Counted from the stretch's first letter, positions 6,759 to 14,784 are shown. The stretch: 64,000 bases of DNA from Deferrisomatales bacterium (GCA_029211085.1 JARGFW010000004.1:971-64970); one strand, 5' to 3'. Program-made: numbers and translations. Notes: a model not told the origin generated them from the sequence alone.

Positions 6759-6835
6759 TCGGGACGTAGCGCAGTCTGGTAGCGCACCTGAATGGGGTTC
6801 AGGGGGTCGGAGGTTCGAATCCTCTCGTCCCGACC
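6759..6835 (+). tRNA. tRNA-Pro, anticodon GGG, with encoded CCA
   Basis: Cloverleaf read by eye: acceptor CGGGACG/CGTCCCG, D arm GCGC-AGTCTGGTA-GCGC, anticodon stem CCTGA/TCAGG with loop ATGGGGT (GGG), T arm GGAGG-TTCGAATC-CCTCT, then A-CCA. Confidence 0.93.
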
Positions 6836-6877
6836 AGTAATATCAAGGGCTTACGGGAACACCCGTAGGCCCTTTGT
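6787..6877 (+). repeat. Direct repeat DR1 (attL-like): 3' half of tRNA-Pro plus terminator hairpin
   Basis: 6787-6838 is identical (52/52) to 14694-14745. Similarity continues through the hairpin to 6877/14784. The 27-nt core 6809-6835 is identical to 23303-23329. Confidence 0.95.
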
Positions 6878-6880
6878 TTT
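6844..6880 (+). terminator. Rho-independent terminator of tRNA-Pro
   Basis: AAGGGCTTACGGG-aaca-CCCGTAGGCCCTT followed by TGTTTTT. Confidence 0.8.
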
Positions 6881-6893
6881 TGGTTTTGCTCAA

Positions 6894-6920
6894 AAGCCGC
6901 CGTCTAAGCCGCCCTTTTGT
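6894..6920 (+). repeat. Arm-type repeat copy 1 (AGCCGCCGTCTAAGCCGCC-c-TTTTGT)
   Basis: 19/19 identity (26/27 overall) with 14533-14559. One copy sits just inside each end of island 1. Confidence 0.85.
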
Positions 6921-6943
6921 CATCGCTGCCCCACGCCACCAGG

Positions 6944-6970
6944 CAAAAAAAGCCCCGGATCTCTCCGGGG
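6944..6970 (-). terminator. Rho-independent terminator ending the island-1 operon
   Basis: The minus strand reads GCCCCGGAGAGATCCGGGGC followed by TTTTTTT, just downstream of the stop of the 6998-7525 CDS. Confidence 0.8.
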
Positions 6971-6997
6971 CCTCGGTGTGTTCTCCTCCCGGGTCCG

Positions 6998-7525
6998 CTA
7001 CTCCACCAACTCCGGGGGCAGCTTCCTGTGCCGCTCCAGCGCCTCCGCCGCCTCCTTCCGCCGCTGCCCCAGCCACACGGACGAGCCCTCCGCGGCGGGG
7101 CGGGTCTGCCGCCGGGCGTTTAGCCACACCTCCCCGTGCACGTTTTCGGGAAAGGTCGGGGAGTAGTCGCTTAGCAGGTCCGCCAGCACTTCGGCCAGGT
7201 GGGCGCGTTGCAGCGCCTCGCCGTCCTGGTGTGCCTCCCTGGCCGCCTGCGCCTCCTGTTCCAGCCTGGCCAGTTCAATCGCGTGCTCGGCCACGGCCAC
7301 CGCCCGGATATCCTCCACCGAGGAGCGGGCGCCCTCCAGTTTGTCTCTGGCCCTCGTGGCGGCCTTTGTGGTGGTCTCCAGCTCTGCCTCGGACTTCTTG
7401 GTGGGGGACTTGTAATTCATCGCCAAGGCCGCCCGGCGGGCCACCTCCGCGGTCTCCAGCTGTGCCTCGAGTTGGGGAATCGTCTCGGTGGTCAGGTTGC
7501 GCAATCGTTGCAGATATTCGCCCAT
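6998..7525 (-). CDS. hypothetical coiled-coil protein (possible scaffold or size-determination factor)
   Basis: 175 aa, rich in heptad-like E/A/R/L segments. AAGGAG lies 8 nt upstream of ATG 7525. It follows the protease gene directly. Confidence 0.6.
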   Translation of the reverse strand: MGEYLQRLRNLTTETIPQLEAQLETAEVARRAALAMNYKSPTKKSEAELETTTKAATRARDKLEGARSSVEDIRAVAVAEHAIELARLEQEAQAAREAHQDGEALQRAHLAEVLADLLSDYSPTFPENVHGEVWLNARRQTRPAAEGSSVWLGQRRKEAAEALERHRKLPPELVE

Positions 7526-7528
7526 CGG

Positions 7529-8329
7529 TCATGCTCCTTTCGGTGTGGTGGTGCTGGGTGTGGTGGTGCTCATCAGATAGGTGAGGGCCTCTCTTGCCGT
7601 GCCTCCAGAGCAAATTCCGTCAATCAGTCGGGGCAGTGGCCCCGTCGCCGCCTCTTCGGCCGTGCCGATCCGGGCGCCGCCCCACCGCTCCCGGAGGTAC
7701 TCGGGGGTCACGCCGCGGTGCTTGGTCAGGGTCGCCACAAACTCCGCCGCCGCGGCCTCGGTTGAGGCTTGCAGGGCCGCCAAGTTTTCGGGGGTCGCGT
7801 CGAGGTCGAGGAACTCCGGCGCGCAGTCCGGCGGGTCTTTGGTCTTGCCATCCGGGTGTTCCACCAACACGGGCCGGCCCTTCAGGCACACAAACTGCCG
7901 GGTGCCGACGCTACCCACCGCCGCGCCGGGTGTGGCATAGGTCAGGCCCGCCGCGCTTGCTATCCACAGGCCAGCCGACAGGGCGGTTTCAATCCAGGCC
8001 ACGGAAGGGACCACCGCCCGGAGGTCAAAAAGTGCGCCGCCAATCGCCCGGGCCGCGGTCGAGCTCCCGCCTCGGCAATTCACCCGGAGGAAAAGCCCTT
8101 TTGCTCCTTCGTCCACCGCCCGCCGGAGGTCGTCGGCAAGGGCCGCGTCTTGGTCCCGCAGGTAGCCGTCCAAGTGGAGGGTGAACACGTCCCAGGGCCG
8201 CGGGAGGCGCCGGTGCTCGGCCTTTGTGTGCGCCGGGGGGGCGGGGCATGGGGTTGCCGCGTGGAGGCTCCGCCAGCCGCACGCGGAGCGCCACGGGCAG
8301 GTGGGGCAGGCGGGGGTCGGTTCAGCCAT
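7529..8329 (-). CDS. S49/ClpP-type serine peptidase (phage head-maturation protease-like); ORF extends to 8404
   Basis: Contains VNCRGGSSTAARAIGGAL and ALSAGLWIASAAGLTYATPGAAVGSVG, which resemble the SppA/S49 motifs (NSPGGS ... ASGGYWIA ... GSIG). A purine-rich SD lies before ATG 8329. Confidence 0.65.
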   Translation of the reverse strand: MAEPTPACPTCPWRSACGWRSLHAATPCPAPPAHTKAEHRRLPRPWDVFTLHLDGYLRDQDAALADDLRRAVDEGAKGLFLRVNCRGGSSTAARAIGGALFDLRAVVPSVAWIETALSAGLWIASAAGLTYATPGAAVGSVGTRQFVCLKGRPVLVEHPDGKTKDPPDCAPEFLDLDATPENLAALQASTEAAAAEFVATLTKHRGVTPEYLRERWGGARIGTAEEAATGPLPRLIDGICSGGTAREALTYLMSTTTPSTTTPKGA

Positions 8330-8512
8330 CGGCGCCGCCCCCTTCTCCCTGCTCGGGCTTGGTGGCGCGGGGCGGAGGTGGTGCCCACAACTTGCGGGCT
8401 TCACGCAATATCACGTCAAGCGCGGGGTCACGCTCGGGCGGTCCGGGCCAGTTCGCCCGGGCTCGGCGGATAAGTCCGCGCACGCGTTCGCGGTCGGGGT
8501 GTTCGGCTGGGT

Positions 8513-8986
8513 TCATGGTAAATTCTCCTCCGTTTCGTCGGGGTCGTTTGGGTCGAATCCAAAGGCCAGTTCATAAAGGGCGCGGTGAATTTCCTCCCCC
8601 AAGATCTCCGCCGCTTCCTGGGGGGTTCTCGTGGCGGCCAGCAGCGGGGCGCATTTGTGGGGCAGTCCCAGCAGTAGGGCGCGGGCTCTTCGGATGCCTT
8701 CGCCCTGCTCCGCGATTGCGTCGTCGCGGCGCATCAACTCACCGGAACGGACCCGGTTTTCCCGCTCCACTTTCTCGGCTTGCGCCGCTGCCAGCCGGGC
8801 GCGTTGTGCTGTCAGGTCAGTTCCCCCGGTGCCGGAAGCCTGGGAGCGCAGGTGGCGAATGTAGCCGACGCGGCACTCGTCCAGGTCGTACCCTGGGCCG
8901 TTCGGCAATATCTTGTCCCCAGCAAGCGCAGTCACGCGCCGCTCGGACAGATCGAGGTGTAGGGCAAGCTCTCTACGTGTGGCCAT
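8513..8986 (-). CDS. phage terminase small subunit, Nu1-like
   Basis: N-terminal winged HTH (MATRRELALHLDLSERRVTALAGDKILP...YDLDECRVGYIRHLR) followed by a coiled coil, as in lambda Nu1. AAGGAGAAGAT lies before the ATG. Confidence 0.7.
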   Translation of the reverse strand: MATRRELALHLDLSERRVTALAGDKILPNGPGYDLDECRVGYIRHLRSQASGTGGTDLTAQRARLAAAQAEKVERENRVRSGELMRRDDAIAEQGEGIRRARALLLGLPHKCAPLLAATRTPQEAAEILGEEIHRALYELAFGFDPNDPDETEENLP

Positions 8987-9212
8987 ATCTTCTCCTTGAG
9001 GGGGCAGGGAACCCCCTAGGCGCCGGTCTGACGCTGGTTTTTCTTCGAGCCCGCTTTCGACCCTCGTTTTCTACGCTCAGGAGGACCCGCAGGCCGTTTG
9101 GTGGCACGGGTTTTGCCGCCGTCGCCTGCTCGTACCGGCGCCGCACAGCGCGGGCCAGGTGGTCGAGGTCGTGGCGTTCTTCCGGGTTGCGGCACTTCTT
9201 ATTTGTGCGCAT
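8973..9212 (-). CDS. small basic hypothetical protein
   Basis: 79 aa. GAGGAGG lies 8 nt before ATG 9212. Third-position GC bias is good in the first half. It overlaps the terS start by 14 nt. Confidence 0.4.
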   Translation of the reverse strand: MRTNKKCRNPEERHDLDHLARAVRRRYEQATAAKPVPPNGLRVLLSVENEGRKRARRKTSVRPAPRGFPAPSRRRYGHT

Positions 9213-9225
9213 GGGTCCCACCTCC

Positions 9226-9537
9226 TCAGTGTGTGCATTCGTACCGGCGCCGGGCGTCCTCGGTCGCGTCGAGGGTGTCCAGCACTTCGCCGATGGACGC
9301 GCCGCCCCGCCACCAGCACAGCGCCGGGGGGGTATCGATCGGAATTGACAGGTCCCCGTAGTCGTCGAGGCGGGGCCGGGTCAGCAGGGCTAAGAGCTCG
9401 GCCTTGAGCCGTCCAAGGTGCGGGGTGAGTTGTTCCACAGCCTCTTGAGGTCCCCTCAGCCCCACCCGGTCGCCAGCCGTGAGCACCTCGCACCCGAGGC
9501 GCCTCGCCTCTTTCAGAAAGTCCGCAGCGGTCGTCAT
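9226..9537 (-). CDS. hypothetical protein (N-terminus resembles TubC-N-type docking/ribbon motif)
   Basis: 103 aa beginning MTTAADFLKEARRLGCEVLTAGDRVGLRGPQEAVEQLTPHLGRLKAELLALL. ATG 9537 overlaps the stop of the upstream ATPase gene (ATGA). Confidence 0.55.
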   Translation of the reverse strand: MTTAADFLKEARRLGCEVLTAGDRVGLRGPQEAVEQLTPHLGRLKAELLALLTRPRLDDYGDLSIPIDTPPALCWWRGGASIGEVLDTLDATEDARRRYECTH

Positions 9538-11021
9538 ACCCACGACTCCGCCGCTCCGCCTAGAGGGAGGGGGTGCTGGACCGTTACAGCGTTACAACGT
9601 TGATTTGGCGCCGTTTCCTGCGGGTTCCCATCCGTTACAGCCTTTTCGGGTGTAACGGTTCGCTCTTCTCGTTTTTCCGCGCCAGTGCTGGGTTGTAACG
9701 GTGTAACGGTTGGAGACCCCTCGGACCCGAGGTAACGGCCGAAGGCGTCCTGGAAGTCGGCCTCCCGGTATCCGCGGAACACGTCAGAGCCGCTGCGCTC
9801 CAGGTGTGGGCGTATGTTGAACGGTCGGAGGAGGCGGGCGAGTTGCCGGACAGTGAGCGGCTTGCCGTGGTGCCACTCCGGCCAGGGCCGCTCCTCCAAG
9901 GTTGCAAGGTCCGTTACTGCCACGGCGGAGGGGAGCCGTGCCCCGTGCCGCCTGAAGAGGTCGCGGAGGTCTTGCAGCAGAAGCACGGCCGCGGCTTCGT
10001 CGCCGTCGTCGTCGCCTACAAGTTCCACCACCGCCGCCCGTGCCTTCGCCGGCCAGGTGCCCCCGAGGGTGTCGGCAATCGCTAACAGGGTCCGCCAGTT
10101 GTCCGCGGCGCGGTCGTTTAAGCCGGTCGGCACGGTAGGGTCCTCCCGTCGCAGCGCCCCCAGGTGGTCGTCAGCCCACCGGGCGCACCTCCTGGGAAGT
10201 GCTTCCAGGGCGTCGAGACGGTCCAGGCGCAGCCGCTCCACCACCTCCTCCGGCCGGCGCCTCCGCATCCTGATTTCTACGGCCCGGTCCATCAACGTGG
10301 GGTGCATTCGTCCTATCAATGCCACCACCTTGGGCGCCCACGTCGAGAATCGGCGTACCTCGTGATCGTCGCCCGCGACCCGCAGCACAAAGGCCGCGCC
10401 CCGGGTGTGCCCGCTGTTCAGAATGCCGCGGAGGTCCTCGGATTCCTTGAGGAAGGTGTCTGCTTCGTCGATCAAGAGGGTGGGCCGCCACTGCTCCGTT
10501 GCCCGAAAGAGGGCAGCCACGGTCACGTTTGCCACGGGCAGCGGGCGCCGGGTCAGGGCTCCCAGGAGGGAAAGGGCGGTTGTCTTACCGCACCGTTTTT
10601 CGGGGCTCGTGATAGCCAGAATGGGCGAGACGTGGGCCGCGTCGTGGGCGTGGCTGTGCAGCGTCCACAGGGTCAGGGCCACAGCCGCACCCGAGGGCAG
10701 TACAATATATCGGGAGAAGGTCGTTTCGAGCTCGGAGGCCAGCACGGCACCGTCCACAGGTGTGGGCCACGCCTCCGGGTCGCCAATGTCTACCGCGGAG
10801 CCCGTTAGCCTCTCGGAGCCCGCGGTCTTGGGCCGGCGCCGCTCCACTTCGGCGTCGAGGGTCGAGGCCCGGATTCCCAAGGTCTTCGCCGCGTCTTGCC
10901 GGCGCCGGTCGTACTCCAGCGCAGGGAGGTCGGTAAGTTCGGCCAGGAGGGCTTCGGTGTCCACCTCCGGGGCCGGCAGGTCCACCACCGGGGCAGCCAG
11001 GATCTCTTCGCCGGCAGTCAT
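9534..11021 (-). CDS. DUF3631-type P-loop ATPase (putative replicative helicase/Rep)
   Basis: Walker A SPEKRCGKT and Walker B LLIDEADTF, plus GILNSGHTRG and FSTWAPKVVALIG blocks typical of DUF3631. ATGA overlap with the primase stop. Confidence 0.8.
   Translation of the reverse strand: MTAGEEILAAPVVDLPAPEVDTEALLAELTDLPALEYDRRRQDAAKTLGIRASTLDAEVERRRPKTAGSERLTGSAVDIGDPEAWPTPVDGAVLASELETTFSRYIVLPSGAAVALTLWTLHSHAHDAAHVSPILAITSPEKRCGKTTALSLLGALTRRPLPVANVTVAALFRATEQWRPTLLIDEADTFLKESEDLRGILNSGHTRGAAFVLRVAGDDHEVRRFSTWAPKVVALIGRMHPTLMDRAVEIRMRRRRPEEVVERLRLDRLDALEALPRRCARWADDHLGALRREDPTVPTGLNDRAADNWRTLLAIADTLGGTWPAKARAAVVELVGDDDGDEAAAVLLLQDLRDLFRRHGARLPSAVAVTDLATLEERPWPEWHHGKPLTVRQLARLLRPFNIRPHLERSGSDVFRGYREADFQDAFGRYLGSEGSPTVTPLQPSTGAEKREERTVTPEKAVTDGNPQETAPNQRCNAVTVQHPLPLGGAAESWV
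9581..9709. repeat. Iteron cluster (putative satellite replication origin)
   Basis: The 8-mer CCGTTACA occurs at 9581 and 9632, with variant GCGTTACA at 9589. The inverse TGTAACGG occurs at 9651, 9694 and 9702 (the last two in tandem). All lie within the 3' end of the ATPase gene. Confidence 0.6.
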
Positions 11022-12148
11022 ACTGCCACCTCCCGCCGCTCAGTCTGGAGCGCGTTGAGGAAGTCGGTTCCCGGTTCCAGTGGAAGCGCCACCCGCACCA
11101 CCCGGCCCTCAGCCACTAGGCGCCGCGCTAGGTGTTCGGCAGCCCGTTGCCCCGCGCCGTTTTCGTCGTGGTCAGCGCAAACGAACACCTCCCGCGCCGC
11201 GGAGGGGAGCTCCACCCGTTCCAGCCCGCCGGCGGAGATTGCAGCCCAGCATGGCAACCCAGCCAACTGGTGGACGGCCAACGCGGTTTCGATGCCTTCG
11301 GCCACCGCCAGCCGATCGCCGTCGAGGGGATACAGGCGCACCGCTGCGCCGCGGGTTGCTCCGGGGTGTGTGGGCCACAACTTCCGGGGGGCAGGGACCG
11401 GGGCCTTGTTTCCGGGTCGCTCGGGGTCGAGGTAGGTCGCGTGCATTGCCACCGGGTCGCCGGTCGGGCCTACCACCCGGGCCAGCACCGCCGGATATGT
11501 GCCGACCACCGCGCCGTCGGTCCAGTAGGGCAAGGCGTGGTGGGTCCTCAGCGCGTCCGCCGCCAGCCCGCGCAAGTCGAGCCCGCGGGCTTGTAAGTAG
11601 GCGGCCGCGGCGTCGCCAGCCGCCAAGGGGCGGGCCTCCGCCCACAGGCGCCTCAGGCGTGCCACCTTGCCGGGGTTGGGTTGCGGGGTTGTCTCGGGTC
11701 GGGCTGGGGTCACGGTTGCCCGTGGTGGGGCAGGACGGCAGCCAGGGGCCAGCCCCAGGGCGTCGGCCACCGCGGACAGGGCCTCGGGGAAGGTCCAGTC
11801 GTTCGCCCACCGGAGCGCAGAGAATCCATCAGCGTAGGTGCCGCAGTTGTGGCACAGGAGGCCGCCCGTTCGGGCAATGTCGTTGAATCCCCGGCAGCGG
11901 TCTTTCCCACCACAAACGGGGCAAGGTCCGTGCTTCGGAGCCCGGGTCACCACTTCGGCCAGGTGTGGGGCGCAGCGTGGCAGGATATCCAGCCACCGGC
12001 CGCGGGCGTGGTCCTTCACCACCCGGGTGTCGAGGTGCTGGGTTGCTCCCCTGGGGGTCTTGCGGTAAACTGTTTTTGCAAGGTTGGTTGACGGCTTCGA
12101 GCGGCTCGGGATTCCCACGTCCCGGGCCGCGCCGTTTTTGGGGACCAC
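11018..12148 (-). CDS. DNA primase, P4-alpha-type zinc ribbon plus Toprim domain (ORF extends to 12295)
   Basis: Zinc ribbon CPVCGGKDRCRGF...LLCHNCG. Toprim region LAVAEGIETALAV...VCADHDENGAGQ. GTG 12148 overlaps the alpA stop (TAGTG). Confidence 0.8.
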   Translation of the reverse strand: MVPKNGAARDVGIPSRSKPSTNLAKTVYRKTPRGATQHLDTRVVKDHARGRWLDILPRCAPHLAEVVTRAPKHGPCPVCGGKDRCRGFNDIARTGGLLCHNCGTYADGFSALRWANDWTFPEALSAVADALGLAPGCRPAPPRATVTPARPETTPQPNPGKVARLRRLWAEARPLAAGDAAAAYLQARGLDLRGLAADALRTHHALPYWTDGAVVGTYPAVLARVVGPTGDPVAMHATYLDPERPGNKAPVPAPRKLWPTHPGATRGAAVRLYPLDGDRLAVAEGIETALAVHQLAGLPCWAAISAGGLERVELPSAAREVFVCADHDENGAGQRAAEHLARRLVAEGRVVRVALPLEPGTDFLNALQTERREVAV

Positions 12149-12372
12149 TAGCCCACCACGTGGGTGCGGGGCGACGTGATGGTGGACGCGCCGCGGGTCA
12201 GCAGCCAGGCTTCCACCTCGGAGCGGAGCCAGCCCACTGTGCCCGGGCTCAGTTGCCGCCGTGCAGGGAACTGCCCCAGCTTTTCCAACCGCCAAACCGT
12301 CGTTGACGATATGCCAGCTACTTCATGAATCACGCGGGGGCGGATGATCTCTTCGGGAATGTGTGGCGCCAT
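12148..12372 (-). CDS. alpA: AlpA-family phage regulatory protein / excisionase-like HTH
   Basis: IIRPRVIHEVAGISSTTVWRLEKLGQFPARRQLSPGTVGWLRSEVEAWL is the typical AlpA/Phage_AlpA motif. GGAGGG lies 7 nt before ATG 12372. Confidence 0.85.
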   Translation of the reverse strand: MAPHIPEEIIRPRVIHEVAGISSTTVWRLEKLGQFPARRQLSPGTVGWLRSEVEAWLLTRGASTITSPRTHVVG

Positions 12373-12475
12373 TCGTAGGCCCTCCATCGGTGTGAACGAT
12401 GGAGCAATCCTAGCGCCCTAATGGGGTGTAGGCAAGTGCAAGTGCTTGAAATGATTCAGGAAGTTGGACGTGCGC

Positions 12476-13090
12476 TTAGCGTGTGTCCAGTCCGTAAAAG
12501 GGGTGTGTCTGCATCGCGCGCCGCACGCTCTTGTCCACTGCTCCCGGCGTACTCTTCTTGAACTTGGCGAGTGTGCGGGCTCTTTTCCCGACCATCAGTC
12601 GGGCGTCGTCGTAGCTCAGCCCGCGGGCCTCGGCTTCGTCCAAGATCGGATGCAGGCGGGTGTCCCGCTCGGCTGCTTCTTTGGTGGGGTGTGTGTTCTT
12701 GCGGGCGTTGCTGGCCTTGACTGCGCGCAAGTCGAGCTCCGCCCCCAGGCGTTCCAGTATCGCCGCGTTGAACGCCGCAGCCGGCACGGGGTTAGCGACG
12801 TGGTCCCCCCTGTGCGAACAGAGCAACCCGTCAGCGCAGACGATGGCAGCGGCCGCCAGTGCGCCGCGGCTCGGGACACCTTCACGGAATGCCAGGCGCC
12901 CGGCTTCCATTTCCGCCTTGAACACCTCCCACGCCGCCACCATCTGCGCGTGCGCCGCTGCCTCCCACCCGGCAAGGGGGGTTGCCTCCCACCGCGCGAC
13001 GATTGAGGCCAGCAAGGCAGGGTAGTTTTCCTGCATCAAGACGATTTCGGGGACGTGGAAGTTGTCGAGGTTGCCGGGCTTGCCTTCCAT
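12476..13090 (-). CDS. hypothetical protein (orphan, between int and alpA)
   Basis: 204 aa. GGAGG lies 8 nt before ATG 13090. No family recognised. The C-terminus is basic. Confidence 0.55.
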   Translation of the reverse strand: MEGKPGNLDNFHVPEIVLMQENYPALLASIVARWEATPLAGWEAAAHAQMVAAWEVFKAEMEAGRLAFREGVPSRGALAAAAIVCADGLLCSHRGDHVANPVPAAAFNAAILERLGAELDLRAVKASNARKNTHPTKEAAERDTRLHPILDEAEARGLSYDDARLMVGKRARTLAKFKKSTPGAVDKSVRRAMQTHPFYGLDTR

Positions 13091-13195
13091 AGGCCGCACC
13101 TCCGCTAGGTGTCCGCAGTGTGAGAAGTCGCCCCCCCGGACCGGTGCGGAAACCGGGTGTTCCCTCCGTCGAGGTAGGGGGGGCGGGTCGTGTGT

Positions 13196-14488
13196 CTACC
13201 GTGCCTTGGCGAACTCCACCACGTTGTCGATCTTCGCCGCATCGCCCGCGACGATCCGGGCCAGGTACCGCCCCCAGGCGTCGAGGGCGCGGGTCTTTTC
13301 CGGCAGGTAGTCGAATAGGTCGTACACCTGCCGCGTCACGTGCTGCGGTGCGTGCCCCAGTAACATCGGCTTGATAAGCCCGCCCACCCCCGCGGCGCTC
13401 ATCATTGTGGCAGCGGTTCTGCGCAAGTCGTGAGGGGTGCAAGGCTGGATCTGGATGGGGTGCCGCTTCCTCTTGCCGTGTTTCTTTGGCGGGCCCAGAT
13501 CAGTTTCGCCGATATTGCGCCGCAGCCCCACTGAGAGCGCGTGTGTGGTCACGGGTGCTCCGCGGGGGCCGATAAACACCGGGCCGCTGTGCCCCTCCCG
13601 GTCGCCGATCAGGTCGAGGGCCAGGGTGGAGAGTGGGACCCCGTGGGTCTTGCCGTTCTTGCGCCGGGACGCCGGGATGATCCATATCACGCGCCCCTCG
13701 TGCACGGTCAACTCCTCATACTGCATCCCGGTCACCTCTCCGGGTCTTTGCGCGCAGACTAGAATCATGCGCAAGGCGTTCTTGACGGCACCGGATAGTT
13801 CGGTTGCGTCGAGTCCGGTCCAGAACTGCCGCACCTCCACATCGGTGAGCACGCGGTCTTTCGGTTTCTCCGCGGCCAAGGGTTCTATGCCGACCACCGG
13901 GTTAACGCGGACGATCCTCTTCCGCTTCGCCCACTTGAACATGGCACCGAGCACAGCCTTTAGCCGGTTGGCTGCCACGGGGGCGCCGCGGGCCTCCACA
14001 GCCTCAAGGAGTTCAATCAGCTCGTCTTGCGTAACATCGCCGGCCTTGAGTTCCCCTAGTACAGGAACCACGTCACTGGTCAGTTGCCGCCGGTACTCCT
14101 TCCACGTGCGCTCCCGCAGTTTCTTCTTCGCTTCCTCGTCAATGAACCGATCACATAGCGTGGCGACGGTTTCGGCGCCCCGCTGTGCCGCTCTCTGAGC
14201 GGCTGCCGTCGCCAGCTGCCGCCGTCTCACCTCTGCGGGGTCGATGCCATCACGCACCTGTGCGTGGGCCGCCTCATGGGCTTTGCGTGCCTCCCGCAAC
14301 GACACCGCCGGGTACTCGCCCAGAGTGAGCTGCTTTTTGGCGCCGTCGATGGAGTACGTATAGAGCCAGCTCCGCACGCCCGTGGGATAGATCATCAGGG
14401 CGAGCCCGCCGCCGTCTCGGAGTTGCCGGCGCCTGGCCCCAGGGGTTGCGGTGGTTCGCAGGTGGGAATCGGTCAGTTTCCGCTTCAT
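13196..14488 (-). CDS. int: tyrosine-type site-specific integrase, P4-like (DUF4102 N-terminal domain)
   Basis: N-terminus MKRKLTDSHLRTT...RQLRDGGGLALMIYPTGVRSWLYTYS. Catalytic region includes HDLRRTAATMM...LLGHAP...Y. GGAGG lies 5 nt before ATG 14488. The ORF extension to 14689 runs into AT-rich att DNA. Confidence 0.9.
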   Translation of the reverse strand: MKRKLTDSHLRTTATPGARRRQLRDGGGLALMIYPTGVRSWLYTYSIDGAKKQLTLGEYPAVSLREARKAHEAAHAQVRDGIDPAEVRRRQLATAAAQRAAQRGAETVATLCDRFIDEEAKKKLRERTWKEYRRQLTSDVVPVLGELKAGDVTQDELIELLEAVEARGAPVAANRLKAVLGAMFKWAKRKRIVRVNPVVGIEPLAAEKPKDRVLTDVEVRQFWTGLDATELSGAVKNALRMILVCAQRPGEVTGMQYEELTVHEGRVIWIIPASRRKNGKTHGVPLSTLALDLIGDREGHSGPVFIGPRGAPVTTHALSVGLRRNIGETDLGPPKKHGKRKRHPIQIQPCTPHDLRRTAATMMSAAGVGGLIKPMLLGHAPQHVTRQVYDLFDYLPEKTRALDAWGRYLARIVAGDAAKIDNVVEFAKAR

Positions 14489-14532
14489 CGGTGCCTCCGC
14501 AAACGGCGGCTTTTCCGTCAGGGGGTCACTTG

Positions 14533-14559
14533 AGCCGCCGTCTAAGCCGCCGTTTTGTG
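14533..14559 (+). repeat. Arm-type repeat copy 2
   Basis: AGCCGCCGTCTAAGCCGCC-g-TTTTGT, matching 6894-6920. Confidence 0.85.
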
Positions 14560-14693
14560 TCGGCTGGAGCTGAAATGGAAAGAAATGGTACGGGAGGAAG
14601 TATAGGCTGAAAATCCAGGAGTCGCAATAGGTTAGACAAGATGTATAGTCTTTTCTTGTCATTTCACAAAAGTGCAAGAAATACCCCAAAAAG

Positions 14694-14784
14694 CTGAATG
14701 GGGTTCAGGGGGTCGGAGGTTCGAATCCTCTCGTCCCGACCAGTACTATCAAGGGCTTACGGCGAATGCCGTAGGCCCTTTGTT
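14694..14784 (+). repeat. Direct repeat DR2 (attR of island 1 / attL of island 2): partial tRNA-Pro 3' half plus hairpin
   Basis: 52-nt perfect match to 6787-6838, then AAGGGCTTACGG-cgaatg-CCGTAGGCCCTT. There is no 5' half of a tRNA upstream. Confidence 0.95.

Follow-up and report, generated by a model that had tools for sequence, protein, structure and literature searches.

Phage-inducible chromosomal islands (PICIs), as SatelliteFinder defines them, carry an integrase, an AlpA-type regulator, a primase-replicase and terS, the gene for the small terminase subunit (TerS), with no tail, holin or portal genes and with a capsid-morphogenesis gene that is optional, as it is in Type B PICIs; they have been reported in 190 species (PMC10085698). 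In Escherichia coli, PICIs fill full-size heads as multimers (PMC6092414), phage-inducible minimalist islands of the chromosome (PICMIs) are packaged as eight-copy concatemers (PMC10803314), and integrative mobile elements encapsidated in virions (VEIMEs) occur in many non-enteric marine phyla (Eppley et al. 2022; PMC9618062). Here we analyze an element beside a tRNA-Pro(GGG) gene in a 64-kb window, i.e. the whole stretch JARGFW010000004.1:971-64970 of assembly GCA_029211085.1. The window comes from a Deferrisomatales metagenome-assembled genome (MAG) in the Deferrisomatia (Thermodesulfobacteriota), an uncultured relative of iron-reducers. The limits and gene content detected are consistent with an integrated, apparently intact, PICI- or VEIME-like satellite that would depend on a lambda-like cos phage as its helper, a reading to which we assign a probability of about 0.7.

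Limits and gene content of the element

As far as the SatelliteFinder definition of a PICI can be tested on this element, every feature appears to be present. There is an integrase at one end together with att sites, an AlpA-type regulator, a primase-replicase with an iteron origin, and TerS; transcription is unidirectional and there are no tail, holin, portal or head-tail connector genes. No element protein matched the known PICI families for capsid morphogenesis or redirection, for which an S49 protease and the protein we call orf175 are candidates only. Profile searches in Pfam, PHROG and NCBIfam bear out the gene set named by a first-pass annotation of this DNA, namely integrase, AlpA, primase, DUF3631 protein, TerS and S49 protease. 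They likewise uphold its claim that genes for the large terminase subunit (TerL), portal, capsid and tail are missing: no open reading frame (ORF) of the element matched TerL, portal, capsid, tail or lysis families in Pfam or PHROG, and tblastn found no homologue of GpA-type TerL, portal or major capsid protein anywhere in the window.

The element is bounded by a direct repeat of 91 nt (6788-6878 versus 14694-14784), and the spacing of its copies gives a length of 7,906 bp. An element of about 7.9 kb with perfect att repeats had been proposed; the length stands, but only a 52-nt core is perfect and the full repeat is 93% identical. This core is the 3′ half of tRNA-Pro(GGG), so that the tRNA is restored by it, and pheT, ihfA, a MerR-like gene and the tRNA are the 5′ neighbors of the element. 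A terminator hairpin follows the tRNA in two copies, element-borne and displaced host, which fold at −23.8 and −24.3 kcal/mol, respectively, and which differ by a compensatory stem swap from G-C to C-G and by loop changes. The T-run is better in the element-borne copy, which argues that attP includes a functional terminator for the restored tRNA. The element thus brings the 3′ end of tRNA-Pro and its terminator as a copy of its own, as is usual in tRNA-targeting islands. Overall G+C is about 0.67, the same as in the flanks, while third-position G+C is somewhat lower in element genes (0.71–0.87) than in adjacent host genes (0.85–0.91).

Minus-strand genes fill nearly the whole element in the order int, orf207, alpA, primase, DUF3631/rep, orf105, a doubtful ORF (orf79/82), terS, the doubtful orf64, the S49 gene, orf175 and a terminator. 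Each ORF is intact, and GGAGG ribosome-binding sites precede several of them. The gene overlaps noted earlier are all there (TAGTG at 12148, ATGA at 11018/11021 and at 9534/9537), and further couplings join TerS to orf64 (ATGA, 8513-8516) and orf64 to the S49 gene (ATGGCTGA, 8322-8329), with a gap of 3 nt between the latter and orf175. A strong terminator does end the operon, but at 6949-6974 instead of the 6944-6970 first given. ATG 14488 is the most likely start codon of the integrase, and GTG 12148 that of the primase. Two groups of AAGCCGCC motifs, one near each end, are candidate arm-type integrase sites, since they lie where such sites are expected for an integrase with an Arm-DNA-bind_3 domain. 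Their 19-nt core AGCCGCCGTCTAAGCCGCC has two copies in the 64 kb against 0.08 expected, one some 55 nt inward of the element's left end and one at 14533-14551; the arm-type function would follow from sequence and position. The slot between int and alpA is variable, and its occupant here, orf207, had no match in Pfam, PHROG, NCBIfam, PADLOC, the Protein Data Bank (PDB) or the proteins of cultured phages.

An alternative explanation could be a P4-family satellite in the strict sense, given the P4-type integrase with Arm-DNA-bind_3, the AlpA regulator and a Zn-ribbon/Toprim primase that resembles the N-terminal part of P4 alpha. This would not account for the separate DUF3631 helicase in place of the D5-type helicase of P4 alpha, nor for a TerS encoded by the element, as to our knowledge P4 encodes none; no ORF, moreover, matches Sid, Psu, Delta or Epsilon in Pfam or PHROG. 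We consider membership in the P4 family highly improbable. The earlier proposal of a helper-dependent satellite (PICI / P4-like) rather than a prophage is accordingly supported in silico in its PICI-like half, whereas the P4-like half, read strictly, fails on the missing sid, psu, delta and epsilon.

The replicon and its embedded iteron array

The DUF3631 protein (Rep) has invariant Walker A (CGKTT) and Walker B (LLIDEAD) motifs. An AlphaFold2 (AF2) model built from a 41-sequence alignment reached a mean pLDDT of 81.8, and its top Foldseek match in the PDB was SaPI1 Rep1 bound to double-stranded DNA (7pds, E 1.6e-6), followed by MCM, AAV Rep40, the NrS-1 helicase and poxvirus D5/E5; SaPIs are the pathogenicity islands of Staphylococcus aureus. 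These matches identify the protein as an SF3/AAA+ self-loading helicase-initiator and tie the DUF3631 family to the SaPI Rep type of helicase. DUF3631 corresponds to RepAM, which initiates replication in the pMEA300-type integrative conjugative elements of actinomycetes (PMC3218068). The family is very large, its relatives numbering over 5,000 at E below 1e-20; it occurs in varied contexts and is barely studied.

All six copies of CGTTACA in the window fall within 9582-9708, three on each strand, at spacings of 8/43/18/43/8 around an A-rich center that is the least G+C-rich stretch inside the operon. The same geometry (2 + 1, then 1 + 2 inverted; 8/43/17–21/43/8) was found at the 3′ end of the DUF3631 gene in 10 other loci, i.e. 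in all that were examined, with arrays at 11243-11371 in L001, 4846-4994 in L005, 4861-4991 in L006, 3603-3732 in L007, 4570-4700 in L008, 1983-2112 in L009 and 6337-6466 in L014. The 8-mer iteron itself co-varies, being CCGTTACA in L001 and L005, CCGTCACA in L006, CGGTTACA in L007, CCGCTACA in L008, L010 and L012/13, CCTCTACA in L009 and CCGTGACA in L014. Shared geometry with a co-varying iteron is strong evidence for a functional cognate origin, predicted to be embedded in the 3′ end of rep. SaPI Reps recognize iterons in two opposed sets around an AT-rich center beside rep (PMC9371898), an arrangement that the origins of E. coli PICIs share (PMC6092414). Embedding in the gene probably accounts for the conserved ‘VT’ residues in the otherwise disordered tail of Rep, and the array has the look of an origin signature common to the family, by which replicons of this kind could be located and delimited.

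Immediately after rep, and overlapping it, lies orf105, whose counterparts in L005 and L006 are 69% and 67% identical. Its N-terminal approximately 50 residues are homologous to those of proteins encoded after DUF3631, by genes that overlap it, in L005, L006, L007, L008, L012/13 and L014, and matches of these proteins to the TubC_N docking domain are weak or faint. The C-terminal parts vary, and some contain CxxC motifs. This conservation suggests that orf105 is probably part of the replicon, and a protein of this type is apparently an obligatory, uncharacterized partner of RepAM.

It is possible that such a replicon belongs to an integrative, autonomously replicating island, AICE-like (actinomycete integrative and conjugative element) or plasmid-like, that is never packaged, in which the part played by TerS and the protease would be limited to interference with phages, decoy functions or cargo, and any transfer would go by vesicles, transformation or mobilization. 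The RepAM identity of DUF3631 (PMC3218068) points in that direction, as do the size of the family and its varied contexts, the existence of a circular relative of 9.8 kb (L014, below), and the fact that a packaging site was looked for and not found. What speaks for packaging is that DUF3631 replicons repeatedly precede differing TerS genes, Nu1-like here and of the Terminase_2 family in L008, or a capsid gene in L001; differing TerS genes are the pattern expected if packaging specificity were matched to different helpers. Element proteins, furthermore, gave no match to FtsK/Tra, relaxase or type IV secretion system families in Pfam, PHROG or NCBIfam, and nothing in PADLOC beyond weak domain matches to defense systems. 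Interference and satellite transfer are in any case not mutually exclusive, and we regard an island that is never packaged as unlikely.

Relatives of the replicon are consistent with shuffling of modules. Scanning genome contigs with Rep turned up one locus, L001. Closest to Rep are the proteins of L005 (JGI 3300041021; 89% identical) and L006 (74%), which are contigs of 5.6 and 7.0 kb with the order int, variable ORF, alpA, primase/Rep and orf105 and no structural genes; relative to the window their integrases are 52% and their AlpA proteins 48% identical, and L006 starts within the same tRNA-Pro att core. Nucleotide identity with L005 is 86% across rep and orf105 and ends exactly at the end of orf105, a sharp junction that marks the locus as mosaic, while in the integrase it is 65%. 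What follows on the 3′ side of Rep and orf105 differs: DUF5681 in L006, a Terminase_2 TerS in L008 and a weak TerS-like ORF in L007. A backbone with varied 3′ modules, together with a packaging module that elsewhere has another gene upstream (L017, below), indicates that replication and packaging modules are exchanged between elements, as they also are in PICIs.

Three of these relatives have layouts of their own. In the Gammaproteobacteria MAG CAMYIN010000066.1 (L001, 7467-13739) an island of about 6.3 kb lies at tRNA-Gln, with host genes directly after it, and holds an integrase, a DUF3631 Rep that shares the iterons and is 47% identical, a pair of small ORFs and, standing alone, a major capsid gene of HK97 type (PF05065, E 1e-23); this would be a different, one-structural-gene satellite-like layout on the same replicon. 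Positions 2348-5798 of L008 (GCA_038924125.1, JBCKVE010000008.1) carry a fused Toprim-DUF3631 gene, an orf105-like gene and the Terminase_2-family TerS, followed by a helix-turn-helix gene, DUF932 and a type II/IIG restriction-modification cluster. No integrase was seen in its 14.7 kb; L008 could be a plasmid-like or larger satellite relative with defense cargo. The third, L014 (Logan SRR22387870, 1-9795), is a contig of 9,795 bp with a 30-nt terminal overlap and is probably circular; it encodes two integrase-like proteins, an S24 repressor, HTH_17, DUF3631 with the iteron array, an orf105-like protein and DUF5681, and may be an excised or episomal relative of such elements.

The TerS, S49 and orf175 module

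A profile of six TerS members aligned with lambda Nu1 over residues 3-169 (hhalign probability 97%, E 1e-10), and two of the six match PF07471 directly. Close TerS relatives are few, and all are in bona fide phages beside a GpA-type TerL (L002, L003 and L004), the first being an IMG/VR contig of 45 kb that carries, besides TerL, genes for a W-like protein, a portal and a fusion of protease and capsid. The protease matches PF01343 (26.7 bits against a cut-off of 24.9), TIGR00706 (E 5e-11) and the ‘head maturation protease’ family phrog_53 (E 4.6e-14), and its residues 92-254 match the C-domain of E. coli SppA (3bez). We place its start at ATG 8329 and not at GTG 8404 because the N-terminus MAEPTPxCPxCPWR..CGWR is conserved in a relative (P0126). 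An exhaustive representative search returned 898 relatives at E ≤1e-3 and only 7 at E ≤1e-10. The protease belongs to a small subfamily of short proteins (220–285 aa) with an N-terminal CxxC...C motif and invariant G87, G88, S118, G139 and G142. The subfamily profile aligned with residues 76-301 of lambda gpC (hhalign probability 97.8%, E 7.5e-13), covering the whole protease domain and no Nu3 part. S118 aligns with S166 of gpC, which Medina et al. (2010) reportedly identified as the catalytic serine, and in the hhalign alignment K162 falls on the gpC lysine, so that a GG oxyanion motif, a nucleophile serine and a general-base lysine, the features of an S49 peptidase, can be predicted in the protein. 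Both the TerS and the protease assignments, on which the first-pass reading of a satellite had depended, are thus upheld by profile searches. The NCBI entry for the protease (MDF1551674.1, P1P84_01370) annotates only its C-terminal 157 residues, so that the nucleophile-bearing part before residue 110 is missing, as are the GG motif and the Cys-rich N-terminus, and for this reason the entry bears the name ‘hypothetical’.

The last gene, orf175, encodes an acidic protein (pI 5.7) with 63% helix-favoring residues and 7% Pro+Gly, and has no match in Pfam, PHROG, NCBIfam, PADLOC, PDB sequences or cultured phages. Its position after a gpC-like protease makes it a candidate scaffold-like or capsid-assembly factor. 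The same genes recur in a Logan contig (SRR7589087, L017) in the order orf75, Nu1-type TerS (PF07471; 43% identical), S49 protease (47%) and orf176 (60%), with no TerL between TerS and protease and with the TerS stop overlapping the protease start. The gene upstream is not DUF3631, orf64 is absent, which makes that ORF doubtful in our element, and downstream the contig shares the terminator and the AAGCCGCC double repeat with our element, followed by a hairpin and by a tRNA 3′ end that belongs to another tRNA. Since the neighbors of a protease relative that is 36% identical (L018) differ from this module, the module does not extend to the protease subfamily as a whole. The relatives that share a whole module, L017 for packaging and L005 and L006 for the replicon, were not seen within full-length prophages, and only TerS taken singly has relatives in phages; the suspicion that related copies might always be embedded in prophages was thus not borne out.

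Homology of TerS and protease with lambda Nu1 and gpC, and the occurrence of TerS-only relatives in complete phages, could also reflect a decayed lambda-like prophage, from which TerL, portal, capsid, tail and lysis genes had been deleted and Nu1, gpC and a scaffold-like gene left behind. Decay would not account for att sites that are perfect over 52 nt, for the intactness of every ORF, or for the start-stop coupling of TerS, (orf64), protease and orf175. The TerL-W-portal block is moreover missing in the same way from L017, and an identical gap in two elements that are 43–60% identical indicates selection rather than random loss. The protease belongs to a short subfamily with its own N-terminal Cys motif and without a Nu3 part, and the replicon is of the RepAM/SaPI-Rep type found in small islands and not a lambdoid O/P module. 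A prophage remnant is in our opinion quite improbable.

Non-coding DNA between the operon end and the arm repeats is also shared. Positions 6936-6997 are approximately 90% identical to 2715-2810 of L017, above the 43–60% of the proteins, and the two elements target different tRNAs. Conservation that outdoes that of the proteins is likely to be cis-acting, and suggests a site of unchanged specificity, the attP arm and perhaps a packaging site. The region 8973-9212, which holds orf79/82, could also contain a packaging site.

Under the preferred reading of a helper-dependent satellite, the integrase, with AlpA, would integrate and excise the element at the 3′ half of tRNA-Pro and the AAGCCGCC arm repeats, as the protein families suggest, and AlpA would also switch on the single long operon. 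The excised circle would replicate from the palindromic iteron origin in rep by means of primase, DUF3631/RepAM and orf105. The Nu1-like TerS would then bind satellite DNA and recruit the GpA-type TerL of a lambda-like cos helper, and satellite concatemers would be packaged into heads and tails made by the helper; at 7.9 kb the element has about one sixth the length of a lambda-like genome, and it would therefore have to be packaged in small capsids or as multimers. The protease and orf175, the latter at the position of lambda Nu3, may intervene in assembly or maturation of the helper procapsid, which is the least supported step, and orf207 would be accessory cargo.

Several observations weigh against this reading. 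Helper dependence, induction, excision, replication and encapsidation are proposed from sequence only, and queries with TerL, portal and major capsid protein revealed no co-resident helper phage in the 64-kb window. No convincing cos or pac site emerged when the element was compared with what lies upstream of TerS in phages L002-L004. The three-gene module is seen in one other place only, L017, and pattern scans of JGI metagenomes and IMG/VR with the protease and orf175 added no copy; the L017 contig is only 2.9 kb, so that the view upstream of its TerS is short. The roles suggested for the protease and orf175 are the least secure part, as they derive from homology with gpC and from gene position only; orf175 has no similarity to lambda Nu3 and no detectable scaffold likeness, and a single-sequence AF2 model of the protease (pLDDT 39.5) was unusable and was discarded.

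A more ambitious possibility, which we put forward tentatively and hold to be less probable than its negation, is that TerS, the short Cys-rich S49 protease and orf175 constitute an undescribed hijack module that, by supplying a maturation protease and a scaffold-like protein of the satellite's own, reprograms the procapsid of a lambda-like helper and that, with the RepAM/orf105 replicon and the palindromic origin inside rep, defines a new satellite family spread across environmental bacteria. If so, TerL, portal, capsid and tail would be taken from the helper, and the module could bring about small capsids fitted to 7.9 kb or to a few copies, or premature processing of the helper scaffold or portal. 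Within the literature and databases searched, three things appear to be new: the module of Nu1-type TerS, short Cys-rich gpC-like protease and orf175; the RepAM/orf105 replicon as part of a satellite, together with the tie between it and the fold of SaPI Rep; and a family-wide origin embedded in rep. The suggestion that a satellite in this lineage would in itself be new biology goes too far, as reports of elements of this make-up exist from many taxa, with PICIs in 190 species (PMC10085698) and VEIMEs in many phyla (PMC9618062).

Table 1. Features of the element and its borders (positions in the 64-kb window; a dot marks features given without strand; L-numbers are the related loci named in the text).
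Feature	Position	Strand	Evidence or remark
tRNA-Pro(GGG), intact	6760..6836	+	ARAGORN; Rfam RF00005 at 63.3 bits; 3′ half is the integration target, attL side
attL core, 52 nt	6788..6839	.	identical to 14694-14745
tRNA terminator hairpin, element-borne copy	6845..6874	+	fold; displaced host copy at 14751-14780
Two tandem AAGCCGCC motifs, candidate arm-type (P′) integrase site	6894..6920	.	about 90% kept in L017
Intrinsic terminator ending the operon	6949..6974	-	hairpin and T-run; −21.1 kcal/mol, z −3.9; kept in L017
orf175, conserved acidic helix-rich protein	6998..7525	-	60% identity, full length, to L017 orf176
S49 (lambda gpC/SppA-like) serine protease, 266 aa	7529..8329	-	N-terminal Cys motif CPxCPWRxxCGWR
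orf64, small ORF start-stop coupled to TerS and S49	8322..8516	-	uncertain
Nu1-like TerS, 157 aa	8513..8986	-	phrog_57 E 3.9e-26
orf79/82, basic small ORF with ribosome-binding site	8973..9212	-	weak counterpart orf75 in L017; uncertain
orf105, likely Rep partner	9226..9537	-	weak TubC_N-like match, PF18563 E 0.0085
DUF3631/RepAM self-loading helicase-initiator, 495 aa	9534..11021	-	PF12307 E 1.2e-45
Candidate replication origin, 3 + 3 inverted iterons (C)CGTTACA	9581..9711	.	inside codons of the disordered Rep C-terminal tail
DNA primase, Zn-ribbon (Zn_Ribbon_Prim)/DUF7146/Toprim_3	11018..12148	-	phrog_510 E 1.8e-64; 41% identity to L007 primase
AlpA-family regulator/excisionase	12148..12387	-	PF05930 E 9e-11; phrog_2790 E 6e-12
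orf207, variable slot between int and alpA	12476..13099	-	non-homologous genes in the same slot of L005 and L006
P4-type tyrosine integrase, 430 aa	13196..14488	-	Arm-DNA-bind_3, Phage_int_M and Phage_integrase domains
Three AAGCCGCC-type motifs (two direct, one inverted) in int leader, candidate arm-type (P) site	14503..14558	.	
Sigma-70-like promoter TTGCGA-17-TATACT upstream of int	14599..14627	-	the element's only AT-rich stretch
attR core	14694..14745	.	displaced tRNA-Pro 3′ half; native terminator then at 14751-14780

Comparison with described satellites and phages

Four described classes could be set aside from gene content or integration site. A complete lambda-like prophage is ruled out since TerL (GpA), portal, major capsid, tail and lysis genes are lacking; a capsid-forming PICI (cfPICI) since there is no capsid, portal, head-tail adaptor or connector or TerL gene of the element's own; and an AICE since no FtsK/Tra match accompanies the RepAM domain. 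PICMIs are very small and share the int-alpA-primase core and ATGA-type gene overlaps with the element (PMC10803314), but they are known from Vibrionaceae only, integrate beside fis and have no terS, packaging or capsid gene, whereas the element has TerS, protease and RepAM helicase; its tRNA-Pro integration and TerS exclude this class.

The likeness to the lambda head genes lies in TerS (to Nu1), in the protease (to gpC) and in an acidic helical protein encoded after the protease, where lambda has Nu3. The element lacks genes A (TerL), W, B (portal), D and E (capsid), which in lambda lie between or behind these genes, and the protease is without the Nu3 part. The finding that TerS, protease and a helical protein are kept without a capsid gene in two diverged elements offers a testable candidate for protease- or scaffold-based exploitation of lambda-like heads.

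Like marine VEIMEs, the element combines a tyrosine integrase, AlpA and a primase/helicase with no major capsid gene, and TerS and serine proteases are sometimes present in VEIMEs as well (PMC9618062). VEIMEs are defined by concatemers sequenced from virions; the element is known here from its genes alone and is likened to them by gene content, and habitat and host differ.

In its replicon the element resembles SaPI1, where a separate primase gene also lies just upstream of rep and opposed iteron sets flank an A/T-richer center. Sequence identity with SaPI1 Rep is only about 12%, and TM-scores reach only 0.36–0.39 because the protein is flexible and has several domains; in the element the iterons fall within the codons of the disordered tail instead of downstream of the ORF, and we know of no SaPI counterpart of orf105.

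The Gram-negative PICIs, with EcCICFT073 and PmCI172 as examples, differ in several respects from the element, whose host is in the Thermodesulfobacteriota, whose RepAM/DUF3631 replicon has the origin inside the 3′ end of rep, and which has no homologue of Ppi, Rpp or CpmA/B and instead a gpC-like Cys-rich S49 protease and a helical protein. If functional, the element would extend PICI-like satellites to the Thermodesulfobacteriota, an anaerobic, iron-reducing lineage known mostly from MAGs, and provide a route for gene transfer and phage interference there. It is with these PICIs that the overall plan agrees, in site-specific or tRNA integration, one-way transcription, the order int-alpA-primase/rep-iteron ori-terS, a size near their 9.5-kb median and a variable accessory slot beside int (PMC6092414, PMC10085698).

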